Positions 14,466 through 20,742 of a DNA stretch of 64,000 bases are shown piece by piece (position 1 is the first letter of the stretch; each line of letters starts with the position of its first letter). Source of the stretch: Cytophagales bacterium (GTDB lineage: Bacteria; Bacteroidota; Bacteroidia; Cytophagales; Spirosomataceae); the NCBI GenBank assembly GCA_013298025.1, contig JAAFJE010000004.1, positions 178,528 through 242,527 of the forward strand. The letters are read 5' to 3'. The notes beneath the pieces were generated by a model. That model was not told the origin of the DNA and searched no databases. It saw nothing but the letters and a program-made list of their open reading frames with translations. The position numbers were made by a program, and so were the translations under genes.

Positions 14466-15794
14466 TTACGGCTGTTTTTCTAGTAGCAAAACGGTATCTA
14501 GCTGATTCTTTTGTGCTGGGTCGAGGTCGAACACATAGTAATTGTTGTCTAGTTTTTGGAACTTAATGGCTTTGCCATCGACAAAATACTTCGCAGATTT
14601 GATGCCTACTGGAATTTTGAGCATAAATTTGGCATCGTTGTATTTGAGCAAATGGATAAAAATTTTGTTGTCTTTTTCGGTGACAGCTCCCCACGTCTGC
14701 GGACGCACAAAGCCTCCTTTGGTGCCGTAGATGGTTTCGCCATACACTTTCATAAAATCGCCCATTTGGCTGAGGCGTTCTACAAATTCGGGTTGGATTT
14801 CTCCATTGGGCATTGGGCCTACATTCAATAAAAAGTTTGCCCCAAAGCCAGCCGCTTTTACCAAATAATGTACCAACTCTTGCGTTGATTTGTAGTTGTT
14901 GTCTTTGATATTATAACCCCAGGCGCCATTGATGGTTTCGCAGGTTTCGAGTGGCAACGCTCCAATACTCTGGCCACCAAAACCTGTGGTGTTTTCGCCC
15001 GGTAAATCTTTCTCAAACATCTGAAAATCTTCGCCGGGCAAGGGCAATAAATGGTGGTTGTTGCCAATCAAACATTGAGGCTGTAGCTTATGAATAAGGC
15101 TGTAAATTTCGTCGTATTTCCAATCTATTTTCGATTGCAAATTTTTGTCGTGGTCGTTGTCGAGTTGGTCCCAGTGGCCATCAAACCAAATAGCCGATAC
15201 TTCGCCATAATGGGTGAGTAGCTCGGTCAATTGGTTTTTCATAAATTGTAAGTAACTTGCATAATTCGACTTGCTAGTGCGACCAGTGCCTTTGCCTGTT
15301 TTACCTGTTTCGTAAGGGTAATCATCTCTGTACCAATCGAGTAAAGAATAGTAAAAGCAAATTTTCAAGCCTTGTTTATGACATTCGTCGGCTAGTTCTT
15401 TGACAATATCTCTTTTAAAAGGCGTATTAGCGATGCCCCAATCGGCGTATTTTGTATGAAAATTACTAAAGCCATCGTGGTGACGAGTGATGAGCGTAAT
15501 GTATTTCATCCCTGCATTTTTGGCGATAGAAACCCATGTTTTCGCATCAAAATCGACAGGATTAAACGCTCTTTGGAGGCGTTGATAATCGTGTTTTTTG
15601 ATATTTTTGATTTGCATAACCCATTCGCCATCGCCCAATACACTCGATGCACCCCAATGAATAAACAGCCCAAAGCGGGCTTCTTCAAAGGCTTTGCGAG
15701 CCGCCAAGTTTTCGGGGGTGGGCGTATAATTTTGTGCAATAGATTGCCCCATAAACAAGCCCAACATAATAGTTAGAAGTGTAATTTTTTTCAT
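14466..15794 (-). CDS. alpha-L-fucosidase (GH29)
   Basis: FGLFIHWG, RHHDGF, YYSLLDW, IWFDGHW, NFLLNVGP. Confidence 0.93.
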   Translation of the reverse strand: MKKITLLTIMLGLFMGQSIAQNYTPTPENLAARKAFEEARFGLFIHWGASSVLGDGEWVMQIKNIKKHDYQRLQRAFNPVDFDAKTWVSIAKNAGMKYITLITRHHDGFSNFHTKYADWGIANTPFKRDIVKELADECHKQGLKICFYYSLLDWYRDDYPYETGKTGKGTGRTSKSNYASYLQFMKNQLTELLTHYGEVSAIWFDGHWDQLDNDHDKNLQSKIDWKYDEIYSLIHKLQPQCLIGNNHHLLPLPGEDFQMFEKDLPGENTTGFGGQSIGALPLETCETINGAWGYNIKDNNYKSTQELVHYLVKAAGFGANFLLNVGPMPNGEIQPEFVERLSQMGDFMKVYGETIYGTKGGFVRPQTWGAVTEKDNKIFIHLLKYNDAKFMLKIPVGIKSAKYFVDGKAIKFQKLDNNYYVFDLDPAQKNQLDTVLLLEKQP

Positions 15795-15907
15795 AAAAAT
15801 TGTTGTTAAAATGTCTGAATTTTTAGCCTTATCATTGGCTAAAAATAGAAGAAAATAAAGATACGATTGTACTCATTTGTTGGGTAAAAATAAAAACATT
15901 CATCACC

Positions 15908-16294
15908 ATGCAAGAAAATTTGGTTGCCTCTACAGCCGAATATGCCGTGAAAGGCACTATTTGGCTAGAGCATCTGACCGATACCGAGCGTTTTCTGGGT
16001 AAAGGTCGGATACAACTCCTCACCCTCATTGCCGCTCACGGCTCTATAGCTCAGGCTGCTAAAACGATGAATATGTCGTATAAAAGAGCCTGGGATTTGG
16101 TTACTTCTATGAACAGCCAAGCCACCGAACCCTTGGTAATTACGCAAGTAGGCGGAAAACGTGGCGGTGGCACAATCGTAACGCCAGCAGGGCATCGGGC
16201 TTTGGCGTATTATACTGGCTTGCAAGAACGTTTTGAGGCTTTTTTGGCACAAGAAACACAGCATTTTCGGGCTTATCACGCTCAGTCAAAATAG
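15908..16294 (+). CDS. modE: short ModE-family winged-helix regulator (no molybdate-binding TOBE domains)
   Basis: GKGRIQLL...HGSIAQAAKTMNMSYKRAWDLV..MN...GGKRGGG..VT..G; only 128 aa. Confidence 0.85.
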   Translation: MQENLVASTAEYAVKGTIWLEHLTDTERFLGKGRIQLLTLIAAHGSIAQAAKTMNMSYKRAWDLVTSMNSQATEPLVITQVGGKRGGGTIVTPAGHRALAYYTGLQERFEAFLAQETQHFRAYHAQSK

Positions 16295-16372
16295 GTCATT
16301 GGCAGATTTTTCTAAGCCGTTGGTCTAAATTTTGAGTCTTCACTACAAGCCTTTCTTTAGTTTCTAGGTATT

Positions 16373-16398
16373 TCGTTATATTTGTTGGAAAATAACGA
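16373..16398 (+). promoter_or_regulatory. ModE-like operator overlapping a -7 promoter box
   Basis: TCGTTATATT-TGTTGG-AAAATAACGA fits CGNTATATA-N6-TATATANCG and contains TATATTTG (16377-16384). Confidence 0.7.
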
Positions 16399-16432
16399 AA
16401 TTTATTACTTCTCATACAAAACTTTCTCCTGT

Positions 16433-17164
16433 ATGTCTTTATTGGTCTTACTTTTTTTATTAGCGCTTGTGGCATTTTTGTATGCTTCCGTAGGGCATGG
16501 CGGTGCCAGTGGCTATTTGGCGGTGATGGCATTGCTCGGCGTTGCTCCAGTGTTGATGAAATCGTCGGCATTGGTGATGAATTTGGCAGTGTCGCTTTTT
16601 TCGTTTATTGGGTTTTATCGGGCTGGTTTTTTTCGGTTCAAGCTTTTTTTTCCTTTTGCCCTCAGCAGTATTCCGTGTTCGTTTATAGGAGCGATGTATG
16701 TATTGCCCGATTCTATTTATAAGAAAATATTGGCGGTTTGTATTCTTATTTCTATTGCTCGTTTGTTGTATCAATTTGACAAATCGAATAAAGAAAACAA
16801 CGCCATTCCCTGGCCCATTGGCTTGCTGGTAGGAGCGATTATTGGCATTATTTCGGGCATGATTGGCATTGGCGGAGGCATTTTACTGAGCCCATTGATG
16901 TTGCTGATGCGTTGGGGCAACCTCAAAGAAACGGCGGCGGTTTCGGCACTTTTTATTTTTGTCAATTCGGTTTCGGGTTTGCTGGGAGCTATCGCTAAAG
17001 GCACATTTGTCATGAGCCAAGATTTAGTTTGGTCGGTATTGGCAACCGTTGTAGGTGGGGCTGTAGGAGCGTATTTGGGAAGTCATAAATTCAACGTGCC
17101 AACCCTCAAATACCTGTTGGCCTTGGGCTTGACCATTGCTTGTTTGAAATTGTTTTTTACGTAA
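16433..17164 (+). CDS. TauE/SafE (TSUP) family permease
   Basis: YASVGHGGASGYL and GMIGIGGGILLSP repeats; multi-TM; start MSLLV at 16433. Confidence 0.9.
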   Translation: MSLLVLLFLLALVAFLYASVGHGGASGYLAVMALLGVAPVLMKSSALVMNLAVSLFSFIGFYRAGFFRFKLFFPFALSSIPCSFIGAMYVLPDSIYKKILAVCILISIARLLYQFDKSNKENNAIPWPIGLLVGAIIGIISGMIGIGGGILLSPLMLLMRWGNLKETAAVSALFIFVNSVSGLLGAIAKGTFVMSQDLVWSVLATVVGGAVGAYLGSHKFNVPTLKYLLALGLTIACLKLFFT

Positions 17165-17241
17165 TCATATCAAAATGATACTTGTCTTTCTATAGATGTT
17201 TGATAATGCATGGCAAGTTTTTTAAGCTTTAATTATGCCTA

Positions 17242-17267
17242 TCGTTATATTTTGTAAAACATATTGG
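17242..17267 (+). promoter_or_regulatory. second ModE-like operator
   Basis: TCGTTATATT-TTGTAA-AACATATTGG; left half is identical to the 16373 site; fits TATAT-N7-wACAT. Confidence 0.55.
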
Positions 17268-17272
17268 ATTAT

Positions 17273-19828
17273 ATGAAAAAACAAATACTTTTTAGCTATT
17301 TTAGTTGTCTTGCTCTGGGCGTTTATGCCCAAAAAACAGCCCCAAGTCAACAACCTAAAGATACCGTAACAGTACTTTCGGAAGTGGTTGTTACGGCATC
17401 TCGTTTGCCAATTGACGTAATGAAATCGCCTATTAGTATTGAACTATTAGATGCTAAAACGGCACAACAGCAAGGAGCCGCCAGCTATTTCGATGCCCTA
17501 GAACACATCAAAGGCGTACAATTATTGACTTCAAGTTTGGGGTTTAAGGTATATAATACCCGTGGGTTTGCCAATCCGACGAATGTAAGGTTTGTGCAAT
17601 TGGTTGATGGCATCGACAACCAAGCACCGCATATTGGTGCACCCATTGCGGGGGCATTAGCACCTTCTGATATTGATTTAGCAAAAGTCGAACTCATTCC
17701 TGGTACGGCATCAGCTTTGTACGGTATGAATGCCTTAAACGGCATGTTGAATATTTTAAGCAAAAGCCCGTTCACTTTTCAAGGGCTAACAGTGCAGCAA
17801 AAAACGGGCGTAAATCACCTTGGTGATGCTAATGCTTCGGCACAATTATTTGCTGAAACAGCACTGCGTTGGGCAAAAGCTTGGCAAAATCGCTGGGCTG
17901 TGAAAGTGAATTTTGCCTATACAAAAGGCTATGACTGGATTGCCGATAATACCCAAGATTTGAATCCTAATGGCAATATTTCGCTAGGCTTGACAGGCCA
18001 AGCCAATCCTGCCTATGATGCCATCAATAGTTATGGCAATGAATCGTCGAATAGAAAAACGTTGACTTTAGGAGGAAAACGCTATGCTGTTGCAAGAACA
18101 GGCTATTACGAAAAAGATATAGCAGATTTTAACATTCATAACCTTAAAGCAGACATAGGGCTGTACTACAAACCTACACCGCAAAGTGAAATCCAATACA
18201 CCTACAAAATAGGCACAATTGATAATGTGTATCAACGTACCAACCGTTTTCGCCTAGATAATTACCATATCAGTCAGCATAGTTTGGTCTTCAAAAACAA
18301 ATCGTTGGTACTGAAAGCCTACCTTACTACCGAAGATACAGGCGACTCGTACAACATTCGGTCGATGGCAGAAAATATAGACAAAGCCTACAAAACAGAT
18401 GACCAATGGTTTAAAGATTTCACAACAGCCTTCAATACCGCTAATGGTCAGGGAAAAACCACAGCAGAAGCCCTGAGCCTTGCTCGAACACAAGCCGATG
18501 CGGGTCGTCCGCAACCGCACACAGCGTCGTTTAATGAATGGATACAAAAATTGAGTAAAATCAACAATTGGGACATTGGGGCTGCACTGCAAGTAAAATC
18601 GTGGTTGTATCATGCCGAAGGGCAATGGGATATGACGGAAAGCCTGTTACAAACTTTGCACCAAAAAACAGGCATAAATATTTTGGCTGGTTTCGATTAT
18701 CGCAGCTATGAGGTGTATCCCGATGGCAATTACTTTATCAATCCTATCGAAGCAAATAAAAACCTCACGTATGTAAAATATGGGGCATTTTTACAAGTGA
18801 CGCAGGCATTTTTTAACGAAAAACTTCAACTAAATCTAAGTGCAAGAGCCGACAAGAACCAGTATTTCGACTGGCAGTTTAATCCTCGGATGGCATGGGT
18901 TTACTCGCCTACGCACGACCACCATATTCGTTTGTCGTATCAAAATGGGTATCGTTTTCCCAGTTTGTTTGAAGCATTTTCTAACGTTAACAGTGGAGGC
19001 GTGAAAAGGGTAGGTGGCTTGCCTTTGATGTCGCAAGGAATTTTTGAAAACTCGTATTTCAAAACCTCCATAGATGCTTTTCAAGCGGCTGTTACGAGCG
19101 ATGTCAATACCAAAGGTCTTAGTACCGCCGAAGCCATTCGTCAGAACAAAGGGTTATTGATAAAAAACGATTATACATACATCAAACCCGAGCAAGTGAA
19201 TAGCTTTGAAATAGGTTACAAAGGCAATTGGCTACAAAAACGGCTGTTGGTCGATATAGATTTTTATTACAATATTTACCAAAACTTTATGGCACAAGTA
19301 GAAGCTTCTGTGCCTAAAACCTCATCCTCCAATACCGATACCATTGCTACTTATCTGAACGACAGAAGTAAGCAAGACCGCTATCGTTTGTGGACTAATT
19401 CTAAAAGTAAGGTATATAATTATGGGGCAAGTATTGGGCTACGTTACCAGTATCGTAATTATATTGTAGAAAGTAATCTTTCTTATGCCAAACTCGATCG
19501 CAAAGAAAGCAATGACGGCTTAGAAGAAGCCTTCAATACGCCACAATGGATAGCAAATATTGGCATAAGTAACCGTAAAATTTGGCAAAACCTTGGGGCT
19601 GGTATCAGTTTCAAATGGCAAGATGCCTTTATTTGGCAGTCGTCATTGGCTACAGGCAATGTGGCGGCGTATCATACCATTGATGCCCAACTGACCTACA
19701 GCGTACCTAGCCAAAAACTTGTGGTAAAACTAGGCGGTAGCAATATTACCAACCAGTATTATTACAATTTTTTGGCAGGACCAAGTGTAGGAGGTTTGTA
19801 TTATATAAGTATTACGGCAAACCTTTAG
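17273..19828 (+). CDS. TonB-dependent receptor
   Basis: Signal peptide, TonB box (EVVVTASR), plug (GTASALYGMNA), C-terminal beta strand; start MKKQ at 17273. Confidence 0.92.
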   Translation: MKKQILFSYFSCLALGVYAQKTAPSQQPKDTVTVLSEVVVTASRLPIDVMKSPISIELLDAKTAQQQGAASYFDALEHIKGVQLLTSSLGFKVYNTRGFANPTNVRFVQLVDGIDNQAPHIGAPIAGALAPSDIDLAKVELIPGTASALYGMNALNGMLNILSKSPFTFQGLTVQQKTGVNHLGDANASAQLFAETALRWAKAWQNRWAVKVNFAYTKGYDWIADNTQDLNPNGNISLGLTGQANPAYDAINSYGNESSNRKTLTLGGKRYAVARTGYYEKDIADFNIHNLKADIGLYYKPTPQSEIQYTYKIGTIDNVYQRTNRFRLDNYHISQHSLVFKNKSLVLKAYLTTEDTGDSYNIRSMAENIDKAYKTDDQWFKDFTTAFNTANGQGKTTAEALSLARTQADAGRPQPHTASFNEWIQKLSKINNWDIGAALQVKSWLYHAEGQWDMTESLLQTLHQKTGINILAGFDYRSYEVYPDGNYFINPIEANKNLTYVKYGAFLQVTQAFFNEKLQLNLSARADKNQYFDWQFNPRMAWVYSPTHDHHIRLSYQNGYRFPSLFEAFSNVNSGGVKRVGGLPLMSQGIFENSYFKTSIDAFQAAVTSDVNTKGLSTAEAIRQNKGLLIKNDYTYIKPEQVNSFEIGYKGNWLQKRLLVDIDFYYNIYQNFMAQVEASVPKTSSSNTDTIATYLNDRSKQDRYRLWTNSKSKVYNYGASIGLRYQYRNYIVESNLSYAKLDRKESNDGLEEAFNTPQWIANIGISNRKIWQNLGAGISFKWQDAFIWQSSLATGNVAAYHTIDAQLTYSVPSQKLVVKLGGSNITNQYYYNFLAGPSVGGLYYISITANL

Positions 19829-19840
19829 TTGATACCAACA

Positions 19841-19872
19841 AAAAGACTACACCAACACAAGTGTAGTCTTTT
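19841..19872. terminator. bidirectional terminator
   Basis: AAAAGACTACAC-N8-GTGTAGTCTTTT between convergent genes. Confidence 0.75.
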
Positions 19873-19894
19873 GGGCAAAAAAGTAAGCCAAATG

Positions 19895-20371
19895 CTATTC
19901 GGTAGCACCTACAGGTTTGAAATTCCCGTGTTTAAGCAATTCATTTTCAGGCTCATAAGGACATACTTCGAGAATGGTTGTAATGTTTATATCCGTAATC
20001 TGATAGTCGTTGAGCGAACCCAAATTTTTCTTTAAGAGTGCATATACTTCGCCAGGGTCGTTGGCATTGATAAGCATAAAGTGAGCCGTTTTCTTTTCTT
20101 TTTGTGATTTTTCGTCGAAAGAAATATACTGTACTTTGGCTTTAAACCACGTTTCAGCCCCATTTTCTTCAAAAAATACTTCGCTTAACTTCATTTTACT
20201 GAGGTTTGTAATCTGAAAATCGGGCGTATTGCTGGCTACAATTTCAAAAACTCTTGCTTCTGCATCGGTGTAGGAAACCGCATCAATCAAATACGCTTCG
20301 TTGATGGTTTTCAATGAACCTGCCTCGTCTTCTCGTTGGTAACGAATCTTCGCCAAATACCAAGTTGCCAT
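19895..20371 (-). CDS. DUF4494 domain protein
   Basis: W...KIRY...E.YLIDAVSYTDAEAR...WFKAKV pattern of the Bacteroidota DUF4494 family. Confidence 0.85.
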   Translation of the reverse strand: MATWYLAKIRYQREDEAGSLKTINEAYLIDAVSYTDAEARVFEIVASNTPDFQITNLSKMKLSEVFFEENGAETWFKAKVQYISFDEKSQKEKKTAHFMLINANDPGEVYALLKKNLGSLNDYQITDINITTILEVCPYEPENELLKHGNFKPVGATE

Positions 20372-20742
20372 GTCGTGTTATGTTTAGGTTGATTGTTCAA
20401 GTTTGCAAAGCTATCAAGTTTTCAGAAAAAATACTTTGGCAAGAAGAGATAATTTTTAAACCAAGGCTTGTTTGAATCTGCCATTTGTATTGTATTTTTG
20501 GATAAAAGCTCATCGTTTATCAGCTTCTCGGAAGAGCATCTGAACGATTAGTTTAAAAATTAATACAAAAAAATTATAAGTAAAATTACTTATTTTTTAC
20601 AGTAAATCTTTTTCAAGTATAAAAAACTATTTAAAAAGTTGTAAAATTTTTATATTTTCAAAATAATGTTTGGTAAAACGATTTTGAAACAAAATATAAT
20701 TTTATTAAATTAGGTTTTACTTTCTGAACAAAACACTCAACA

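Follow-up and report, generated by a model that had tools for sequence, protein, structure and literature searches.

How does a bacterium that makes molybdenum enzymes obtain molybdate if it has no known molybdate transporter? This question was raised by a 64,000-nucleotide stretch of DNA (the window) from a freshwater Flectobacillus of the Cytophagales (GCA_013298025.1, contig JAAFJE010000004.1), in which a short ModE-like gene is followed by genes for a TauE-type permease and a TonB-dependent receptor (TBDR). An earlier note, made from the sequence alone, had proposed that these genes form a ModE-controlled oxyanion uptake route without ModABC. We compared the locus with about 240 related genomes, and our results are consistent with a ModE-repressed, two-membrane molybdate route that replaces ModABC, which we consider about 60% probable in the absence of expression, binding or transport data.

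A mini-ModE, a TauE permease and a TonB-dependent receptor are associated with two ModE-type palindromes

All three genes and both boxes were found where the earlier note had placed them. The features are as follows (positions within the window):

15908..16294 (+), mini-modE, encoding a 128-aa winged-helix ModE N-terminal domain with no Mop/TOBE domain
16374..16397, ModE-type box 1 (core), a perfect CGTTAT-N12-ATAACG palindrome 36 nt upstream of the tauE start codon
16377..16384 (+), candidate Bacteroidota -7 promoter element TATATTTG, inside box 1
16433..17164 (+), tauE-clade TSUP permease, 243 aa, the proposed inner-membrane molybdate importer
17243..17266, ModE-type box 2 (core), CGTTAT-N12-ATATTG, with one mismatch in its right arm, ending 7 nt upstream of the receptor start codon
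17273..19828 (+), TonB-dependent receptor, 851 aa, the proposed outer-membrane step

The mini-ModE matched only ModE_repress TIGR00637 (E 2.6e-23 over 84 of 100 positions), although its 82 bits fall below the curated 98.5. Its best solved relative is the 135-aa 2IJL 'molybdenum-binding transcriptional repressor' (E 4e-19), followed by the N-domain of E. coli ModE (1B9M/1O7L). The TauE/SafE gene scored 107.5 bits against PF01925 (cut-off 32.6), and the glycine motifs GHGGASGY and GIGGGIxLSP are conserved across its clade. The listed open reading frame starts at TTG 16382, inside box 1, but orthologue lengths point to ATG 16433. The receptor starts at ATG 17273 with a signal peptide and a TonB-box-like LSEVVVTA, followed by plug (PF07715, residues 52-160) and barrel (PF00593, residues 359-828) domains.

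The sequence TCGTTATATT occurs at both 16373-16382 and 17242-17251. To determine whether the boxes exceed chance, we built a 32-nt matrix from 14 sites downstream of modE in this and related genomes, including box 1 but not box 2. Across all 5.44 million positions of the genome, box 1 ranked first (33.2 bits) and box 2 second (21.4 bits); only these two positions reached 20 bits, and the third hit (19.4 bits) lies inside an ORF. The consensus CGTTATAT-N8-ATATAACG has the same half-site and spacing as the EMSA-verified Methanosarcina ModE motif RTTATGT-N8-RCATAAY (PMC12327845) and also matches the E. coli-type box. As the earlier note had stated, a candidate promoter element overlaps box 1: TATATTTG fits the likely Bacteroidota -7 consensus TAnnTTTG, but this overlap is not conserved in all orthologous sites. 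No box was found near Moco or molybdoenzyme genes (best score 11.8 bits or less), so the predicted regulon is transport-only in this genome.

The association of ModE with tauE and the receptor is conserved

Next, we examined whether the arrangement recurs in relatives. Linkage of modE to tauE or to the TBDR was seen in most of 98 loci from many genera. Among 18 loci from relatives, modE was adjacent to tauE in 9, to the TBDR orthologue in 7 and to a small SUOX-fold protein in 4, and among 80 named loci, at least 41 had modE followed by the TBDR and at least 20 had modE followed by tauE. A site equivalent to box 1 lay just downstream of modE in 13 of the 18 loci by an exact pattern search, and in 16 of 18 by the matrix at 13 bits or more. 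Orthologous receptors carried one to three boxes upstream. TBDR orthologues unlinked to modE in seven genomes each carried two matrix hits (18.5-32 bits) within about 300 bp upstream, and these sites were not used for the matrix. In one Hymenobacter genome, the only perfect box found lies about 195 bp upstream of the unlinked TBDR. In contrast, the orthologue in a genome with no ModE had no box. Conservation was not universal, as the TauE orthologues in two genomes (G017 and G006; G numbers are our labels for individual genomes) lack a box although those genomes have a ModE.

The same mini-ModE sits directly beside modA in six other Cytophagales genomes and next to modCBA in Nibrella; the six modA-linked cases indicate that it is the ordinary molybdate-transport regulator of this lineage. 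All 38 ModE matches in the 37 sampled Cytophagales genomes that have one are HTH-only, in open frames of 112-168 aa, including those beside modA, and no TOBE/Mop protein was found anywhere in the Flectobacillus genome. Mop-less sensing is therefore the norm in this order, and the proposal in the earlier note that this ModE needs a separate sensor is untested. The note had also considered a TonB receptor under ModE control to be unusual; however, this predicted arrangement is common in the order (24 of 37 ModE-bearing genomes sampled), although we found no paper describing a molybdate-regulated TBDR in Bacteroidota in the literature searched.

The tauE clade and the receptor follow molybdenum use

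The genome is 99.97% complete and has MoaA, MoeA, one 1208-aa molybdopterin oxidoreductase and three SUOX-type genes, but no ModA, ModB, TOBE domain, WtpA or TupB was found. We analysed 201 Cytophagales genomes. This TauE clade occurred only in MoeA-positive genomes (46 of 46) and almost never with ModA: among the 119 MoeA-positive genomes, 53 had ModA only, 44 had TauE only, 2 had both and 20 had neither (Fisher p 1.3e-14, which overstates independence because related genomes share history). Switches occurred within genera (Spirosoma G010 against G086/G204/G216, and G017 against G149). Furthermore, the gene lay inside Moco operons (moaA-moeA-tauE-moaD-moeB-moaE-moaC/mog) in at least 11 genomes, being found there in G006, G027 and all 10 further loci retrieved. 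All of these form one clade (97/89 support), far from the three other TauE paralogues of the Flectobacillus genome. Eight of the 20 genomes with neither system are Hymenobacter with modE followed by the TBDR, so other importers must exist.

TBDR orthologues were also confined to MoeA-positive genomes (34 of 34), and co-occurred with either inner-membrane system (ModA in 12 genomes, TauE in 8). In Nibrella, the orthologue is divergent from modA-modB-modC across an intergenic region with three boxes. In one genome that has ModA 8 kb away, both modE and the TBDR are pseudogenes.

A proposed molybdenum acquisition regulon

Every comparative test that we could run supported the core reading of the earlier note, an inner-membrane TauE permease and an outer-membrane TBDR under ModE acting in place of ModABC. 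Of the four cargoes it had suggested (molybdate, tungstate, a sulfur oxyanion or a metal chelate), the evidence narrows the choice to molybdate, with tungstate not excluded, and argues against a sulfur oxyanion. We propose that the HTH-only ModE binds as a dimer to the 24-bp palindromes, one overlapping the likely tauE promoter and the other abutting the receptor start codon, and represses both genes when molybdenum is sufficient. When molybdenum is scarce, the TBDR would use TonB/proton-motive energy to bring molybdate, or a molybdenum-bearing complex that yields molybdate in the periplasm, across the outer membrane, and the 8-TM TauE/TSUP permease would carry molybdate across the inner membrane to MoeA. 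ModE binding, repression rather than activation, the direction of transport and both cargoes are inferred, and molybdenum may be sensed directly or through Moco status, as may be the case in Agrobacterium. We consider the ModE operator and regulon very likely and the role of TauE as a molybdate importer likely, although its family is annotated as a sulfite/sulfonate exporter and direction cannot be read from sequence. A cargo containing Mo (or W) for the TBDR is only slightly more likely than not; free molybdate is small and probably crosses outer membranes through porins, and the receptor has no specific family assignment.

Alternative explanations

The alternative that survives best, although unlikely, is that TauE imports molybdate whereas the receptor carries something without Mo or W as part of a molybdenum-starvation response, for example a nutrient that compensates for idle molybdoenzymes, or a siderophore, cobalamin or heme. 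In agreement, the only family similarities of the receptor are weak plug matches to CirA and to the B12 and heme receptor models, and ModE regulons elsewhere appear to include molybdenum-using and other non-transport genes, so a box does not prove a transport role. However, against this stand the confinement of orthologues to MoeA-positive genomes, the control region shared with modABC in Nibrella, the joint decay of receptor and modE in the ModA-bearing genome, the exported SUOX-fold protein that often joins it in the same operon, and a predicted regulon here of only the two transport genes.

It is more doubtful that the route serves mainly tungstate or vanadate. ModE-type regulators and Mod/Wtp/Tup systems often handle both Mo and W, MoeA and the Moco genes also serve the tungsten cofactor, and a vanadium-haloperoxidase-like lipoprotein has been noted 3-15 kb downstream. 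In contrast, the cofactor enzymes of this genome are SUOX-type proteins and a large DMSO-reductase-family oxidoreductase beside a likely nitrate-type ABC permease, which are typically molybdenum enzymes; the phyletic pattern follows MoeA and is complementary to ModA, the molybdate binding protein; and no tungsten-specific gene (WtpA, TupB) was found.

Similarly improbable is that TauE exports sulfite or a sulfonate, or handles sulfur for molybdopterin synthesis, with the ModE-like protein regulating sulfur metabolism. This would fit the family name and source annotations, and the position in Moco operons next to moaD and a moeB with a rhodanese domain, the sulfur-transfer steps. However, it does not explain the rarity of co-occurrence with ModA (2 of 99 genomes that have either), the within-genus switches, a ModE-type palindrome of the same kind as those beside modABC, or the pairing with an outer-membrane importer, and the three other TauE paralogues, one near a SUOX gene, could serve sulfite export. 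Finally, although the half-site resembles the -7 element and the genome is 60% A+T, fortuitous palindromes beside chance neighbours are contradicted by the genome-wide ranking of the boxes, their conservation upstream of linked and unlinked orthologues in many genera, and their absence from the orthologue in the genome without ModE.

Comparison with known systems

Current accounts list only ModABC, WtpABC and TupABC as prokaryotic Mo/W importers (for example PMC13144720), yet 64 of the 119 molybdenum-using Cytophagales genomes sampled have no ModA. A TSUP permease would fill most of that gap, would give a function to a large group of genes annotated as 'sulfite exporter' and would change how molybdenum use is inferred from genomes and metagenomes, for example for nitrate assimilation in fresh waters where Mo is nanomolar. 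Taken furthest, this TSUP/TauE clade would be a third, non-ABC class of prokaryotic molybdate importer that replaces ModABC in over a third of the molybdenum-using Cytophagales sampled (44 of 119), molybdenum would cross the outer membrane by a dedicated TonB-energised receptor rather than by porins, and both would be switched by a ModE that senses molybdenum without any Mop domain. That all three hold together is tentative, and slightly less likely than not.

The locus would work like the ModABC, WtpABC and TupABC importers but is not a member of them. As in the E. coli ModE-modABC regulon, a ModE-family winged-helix protein is encoded next to transport genes, and a 24-bp palindrome of the CGnTATAT-N8-ATATAnCG type is placed over the likely promoter; here, however, the regulator lacks the di-Mop molybdate-binding domain, the transporters are a TSUP permease and a TBDR rather than an ABC system, and no Moco or molybdoenzyme gene carries a box. 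The closest solved relative, 2IJL, is probably the HTH-only ModE of Agrobacterium tumefaciens (Hoffmann et al. 2016, Mol Microbiol 101:809, PMID 27196733), which has the same size and lack of a Mop domain and appears to repress molybdate uptake genes in step with the Moco status of the cell, but which probably controls modABC rather than non-ABC transporters. Within PF01925, Pseudomonas fluorescens TK06_RS10770 takes up sulfate (PMC11535334) and rice OsDISMO1 transports Mo (PMC12227400); each moves a tetrahedral oxyanion, but neither is a bacterial molybdate importer, and the clade described here is defined by ModE-type boxes, Moco-operon embedding and exclusion of ModA. Lastly, TBDRs for non-iron metals, such as ZnuD for zinc and OprC/NosA for copper, appear to be energised receptors for a trace metal controlled by that metal's own repressor, as is proposed here, although there is no sequence-level family link and the cargo here would be an oxyanion or an Mo complex, adding an oxyanion metal to the cargoes known for such receptors.

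Organisation of the locus

Three co-directional genes lie at 15908-19828, flanked by unrelated genes, a fucosidase upstream on the other strand and a DUF4494 gene downstream. The features are as follows:
15908-19828, three co-directional genes, encoding in order a 128-aa mini-ModE, a TauE/SafE (TSUP) permease and a TonB-dependent receptor (TBDR)
16374-16397, core of ModE box 1
16377-16384, candidate Bacteroidota -7 element, inside box 1
16433, ATG start codon of tauE
17243-17266, core of ModE box 2
17273, ATG start codon of the receptor

The 128-aa protein matches only the ModE N-terminal repressor domain (TIGR00637, E 2.6e-23). Its best solved relative is 2IJL, a 135-aa 'molybdenum-binding transcriptional repressor', followed by the DNA-binding domain of E. 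coli ModE. The second gene encodes a TauE/SafE permease (PF01925, 107.5 bits). Although the mechanically called ORF starts at TTG 16382, inside the first box, ATG 16433 gives a protein of 243 aa, in line with orthologues of 241-259 aa. A PDB sequence search with TauE returned no relative. The third gene encodes a receptor with plug and barrel domains which, from ATG 17273, has a signal peptide and a TonB-box-like LSEVVVTA.

Two ModE boxes are the best matches in the genome

In agreement with the earlier note, TCGTTATATT occurs at 16373-16382 and at 17242-17251. The core of box 1 is a perfect CGTTAT-N12-ATAACG palindrome, and that of box 2 has one mismatch. An exact pattern search found the same 24-bp palindrome just downstream of modE in 13 of 18 loci from relatives. 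We built a 32-nt palindromic matrix from those sites and scanned the 5.44 Mb of this genome, in which box 1 ranked first (33.2 bits) and box 2, which was not used for the matrix, ranked second (21.4 bits). Only two positions reached 20 bits. The third-ranked hit (contig C27, position 8627; 19.4 bits) lies inside a 760-aa ORF and was treated as chance, and lower hits at C1:211114 and C5:139461 are intergenic. The consensus CGTTATAT-N8-ATATAACG has the half-site and spacing of the EMSA-verified Methanosarcina ModE motif RTTATGT-N8-RCATAAY (PMC12327845), and also matches the E. coli-type box.

Within box 1, TATATTTG (16377-16384) appears to fit the Bacteroidota -7 element, while box 2 ends 7 nt before the ATG of the receptor. 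Both positions suit repression; there are no transcript data. A scan for sigma-70 promoters and terminators gave counts no higher than in shuffled sequence, and the model does not suit Bacteroidota. An Rfam search of 15000-20500 at E up to 1 found nothing, so there is no Moco riboswitch here.

The regulon is conserved whether or not the genes are linked

We next examined the association of these genes in relatives of this Flectobacillus genome (family Spirosomataceae). In ORF-based clusters of 18 loci from 41 related genomes, modE is next to tauE in 9, next to the receptor orthologue in 7, and next to a roughly 166-aa exported SUOX-fold protein in 4. In 80 named loci (Arcicella, Emticicia, Spirosoma, Hymenobacter, Nibrella, Arsenicibacter and others), at least 41 have modE followed by the receptor and at least 20 have modE followed by tauE, with TauE adjacency being undercounted in this set; nearly all of these have boxes in between. 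Four other Flectobacillus species keep modE-tauE, but their receptor orthologue lies elsewhere, and the orthologue is also unlinked to modE in three further genera. Each of these seven unlinked orthologues has two matrix hits (18.5-32 bits) within about 300 bp upstream. In contrast, G008, a genome with the receptor but no ModE, has an orthologue with no box. In the Hymenobacter genome G071, modE and the receptor are 3.2 Mb apart, and the only perfect palindrome found in the genome lies about 195 bp upstream of the receptor. This was the single site returned by a strict pattern search in four Hymenobacter genomes and one other (G024), a search too strict to find the missing inner-membrane transporter of Hymenobacter.

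Other genes accompany modE in some relatives. A protein of about 160-178 aa with a weak Oxidored_molyb (SUOX-fold) match recurs in their modE/TBDR operons (numbered loci L032:6535-7035 (-), L045:8520-9026 (+), L044:4274-4783 (-), L097:7633-8133 (+) and L118:8420-8956 (+)). Most copies read have a signal peptide, and the copy in genome G002 has no cysteine in the mature part that could bind Mo; the protein may be a periplasmic Mo or pterin handler. In genome G006 (L044:4274-8507), modE is followed by a different, 662-aa TonB-dependent receptor, a di-haem cytochrome c peroxidase/MauG-like protein and the small SUOX-fold protein, and the TauE orthologue sits in the Moco operon instead. In some Spirosoma, a roughly 170-aa protein with no Pfam or NCBIfam match lies between modE and the receptor (L088:8430-8945 (-), L098:8372-8896 (-) and L037:7450-7959 (+)) and is transcribed divergently from the receptor across the ModE boxes. 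This is an uncharacterised candidate regulon member, possibly a cytoplasmic partner of ModE. Homologues of the small exported SUOX-fold protein and of the Spirosoma 171-aa protein are absent from the Flectobacillus genome studied here.

Mini-ModE as the probable normal molybdate-transport regulator of this lineage

A profile of 15 mini-ModEs found matches in 37 of 201 Cytophagales genomes. All matches lie in open frames of 112-168 aa, so no full-length ModE was seen and the Mop-less form is the only form seen in this order. MoeA is present in 36 of the 37 genomes, the exception being G173, which has mini-ModE without a detectable MoeA. In six genomes the mini-ModE lies directly beside modA. 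In Nibrella viscosa, the order is modE, then modC-modB-modA on the other strand, then three boxes, then the receptor orthologue (60.7% identity). Therefore, the receptor there shares its control region with canonical modABC.

The earlier note had proposed that this ModE needs a separate sensor. No Mop/TOBE protein exists in the genome, and Mop-less ModEs are universal in the order sample. The Mop-less Agrobacterium ModE may repress modABC in step with Moco status (Hoffmann 2016, PMID 27196733), and both direct binding of molybdate and sensing of Moco are possible.

The genome needs molybdenum but no known importer was found

The assembly is 99.97% complete and encodes MoaA, MoeA, a 1208-aa molybdopterin oxidoreductase and three SUOX-type genes. 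ModA, any ModB/CysTW-type permease above noise, TOBE/Mop, WtpA and TupB were not found. The only weak ModB-like hit (21.6 bits; G000:C13:12200-15060, where G000 is this genome) lies beside the 1208-aa molybdopterin oxidoreductase, which suggests a nitrate-assimilation cluster with a nitrate-type ABC permease, and hence a main use for molybdenum in this organism. No box lies near any Moco or molybdoenzyme gene, and in this genome ModE appears to control only the two transport genes.

TauE as the proposed inner-membrane importer

To assess TauE as the inner-membrane importer, we surveyed 201 Cytophagales genomes at least 90% complete.

Table. Census of MoeA, ModA and the TauE clade in 201 Cytophagales genomes
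Feature: Count
MoeA-positive genomes: 119
Genomes with ModA: 56 (55 of them MoeA-positive)
Genomes with this TauE clade (E ≤ 1e-30): 46 (all MoeA-positive)
MoeA-positive with ModA only: 53
MoeA-positive with TauE only: 44
MoeA-positive with both: 2
MoeA-positive with neither: 20

ModA and TauE rarely occurred together (Fisher's test; P = 1.3e-14), although related genomes are not independent and this value overstates the evidence. The pattern spans 11 families and includes switches within genera (Spirosoma G010 against G086/G204/G216; G017 against G149). In G006, G027 and all ten further loci that we retrieved, the clade gene lies inside the Moco operon, with the typical order moaA-moeA-tauE-moaD-moeB-moaE-moaC/mog. 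A maximum-likelihood tree placed the ModE-linked, Moco-linked and stand-alone members in one clade (97/89 support), with the three other TauE paralogues of the genome lying far from it. One of these paralogues lies about 3.5 kb from a SUOX-type molybdoenzyme gene (G000:C6:27858-28556 (-) and C6:23819-24340 (-)) and is a better candidate for the sulfite-handling role for which the family is named. All database relatives carry only generic names. Precedents exist in the family, namely sulfate uptake by a Pseudomonas homologue (PMC11535334) and Mo transport by rice OsDISMO1 (PMC12227400).

The receptor as a possible outer-membrane step

Receptor orthologues (E ≤ 1e-200) occur in 34 genomes, all MoeA-positive. 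Of the 28 closest orthologues, 24 are in genomes with a mini-ModE. The closest orthologues accompany either inner-membrane system, with ModA in 12 genomes, TauE in 8 and neither in 8 Hymenobacter (G036, G055, G071, G087, G119, G180, G193 and G217), which have MoeA, mini-ModE and the boxed receptor. In G013 (L046; G013:C27:61047-77347), which has ModA about 8 kb away and no TauE-clade gene, modE and the receptor orthologue are both pseudogenes, broken by stop codons or frameshifts. This looks like decay of the system where ModABC is present, although that genome is only 85% complete.

The evidence for the receptor is weaker than that for TauE, since there is no complementary pattern, no specific family assignment (a PDB sequence search gave only a weak plug match to CirA) and no reason from sequence why porins would not suffice. 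Nevertheless, given the restriction to MoeA-positive genomes, the Nibrella arrangement and the transport-only regulon, we consider a role in molybdenum uptake slightly more likely than not. Because the periplasmic partner is either ModA, which binds free molybdate, or a small anion permease, the periplasmic species is most likely free molybdate. The ligand of the receptor itself could be molybdate or a complex that releases it.

Comparison with known molybdate uptake systems

Together, these results confirm the genes and boxes of the earlier note and support its interpretation as an oxyanion uptake route without ModABC, with all functional steps inferred from comparative genomics. The note had left the cargo as molybdate, tungstate, a sulfur oxyanion or a metal chelate; our analysis narrows it to molybdate, with tungstate not excluded. 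We found no paper describing a bacterial TSUP (or DUF81) molybdate importer or a ModE-controlled TonB receptor in Bacteroidota, and a 2026 survey lists only ModABC, WtpABC and TupABC (PMC13144720). The logic of the locus matches the E. coli ModE-modABC circuit, but the parts differ.
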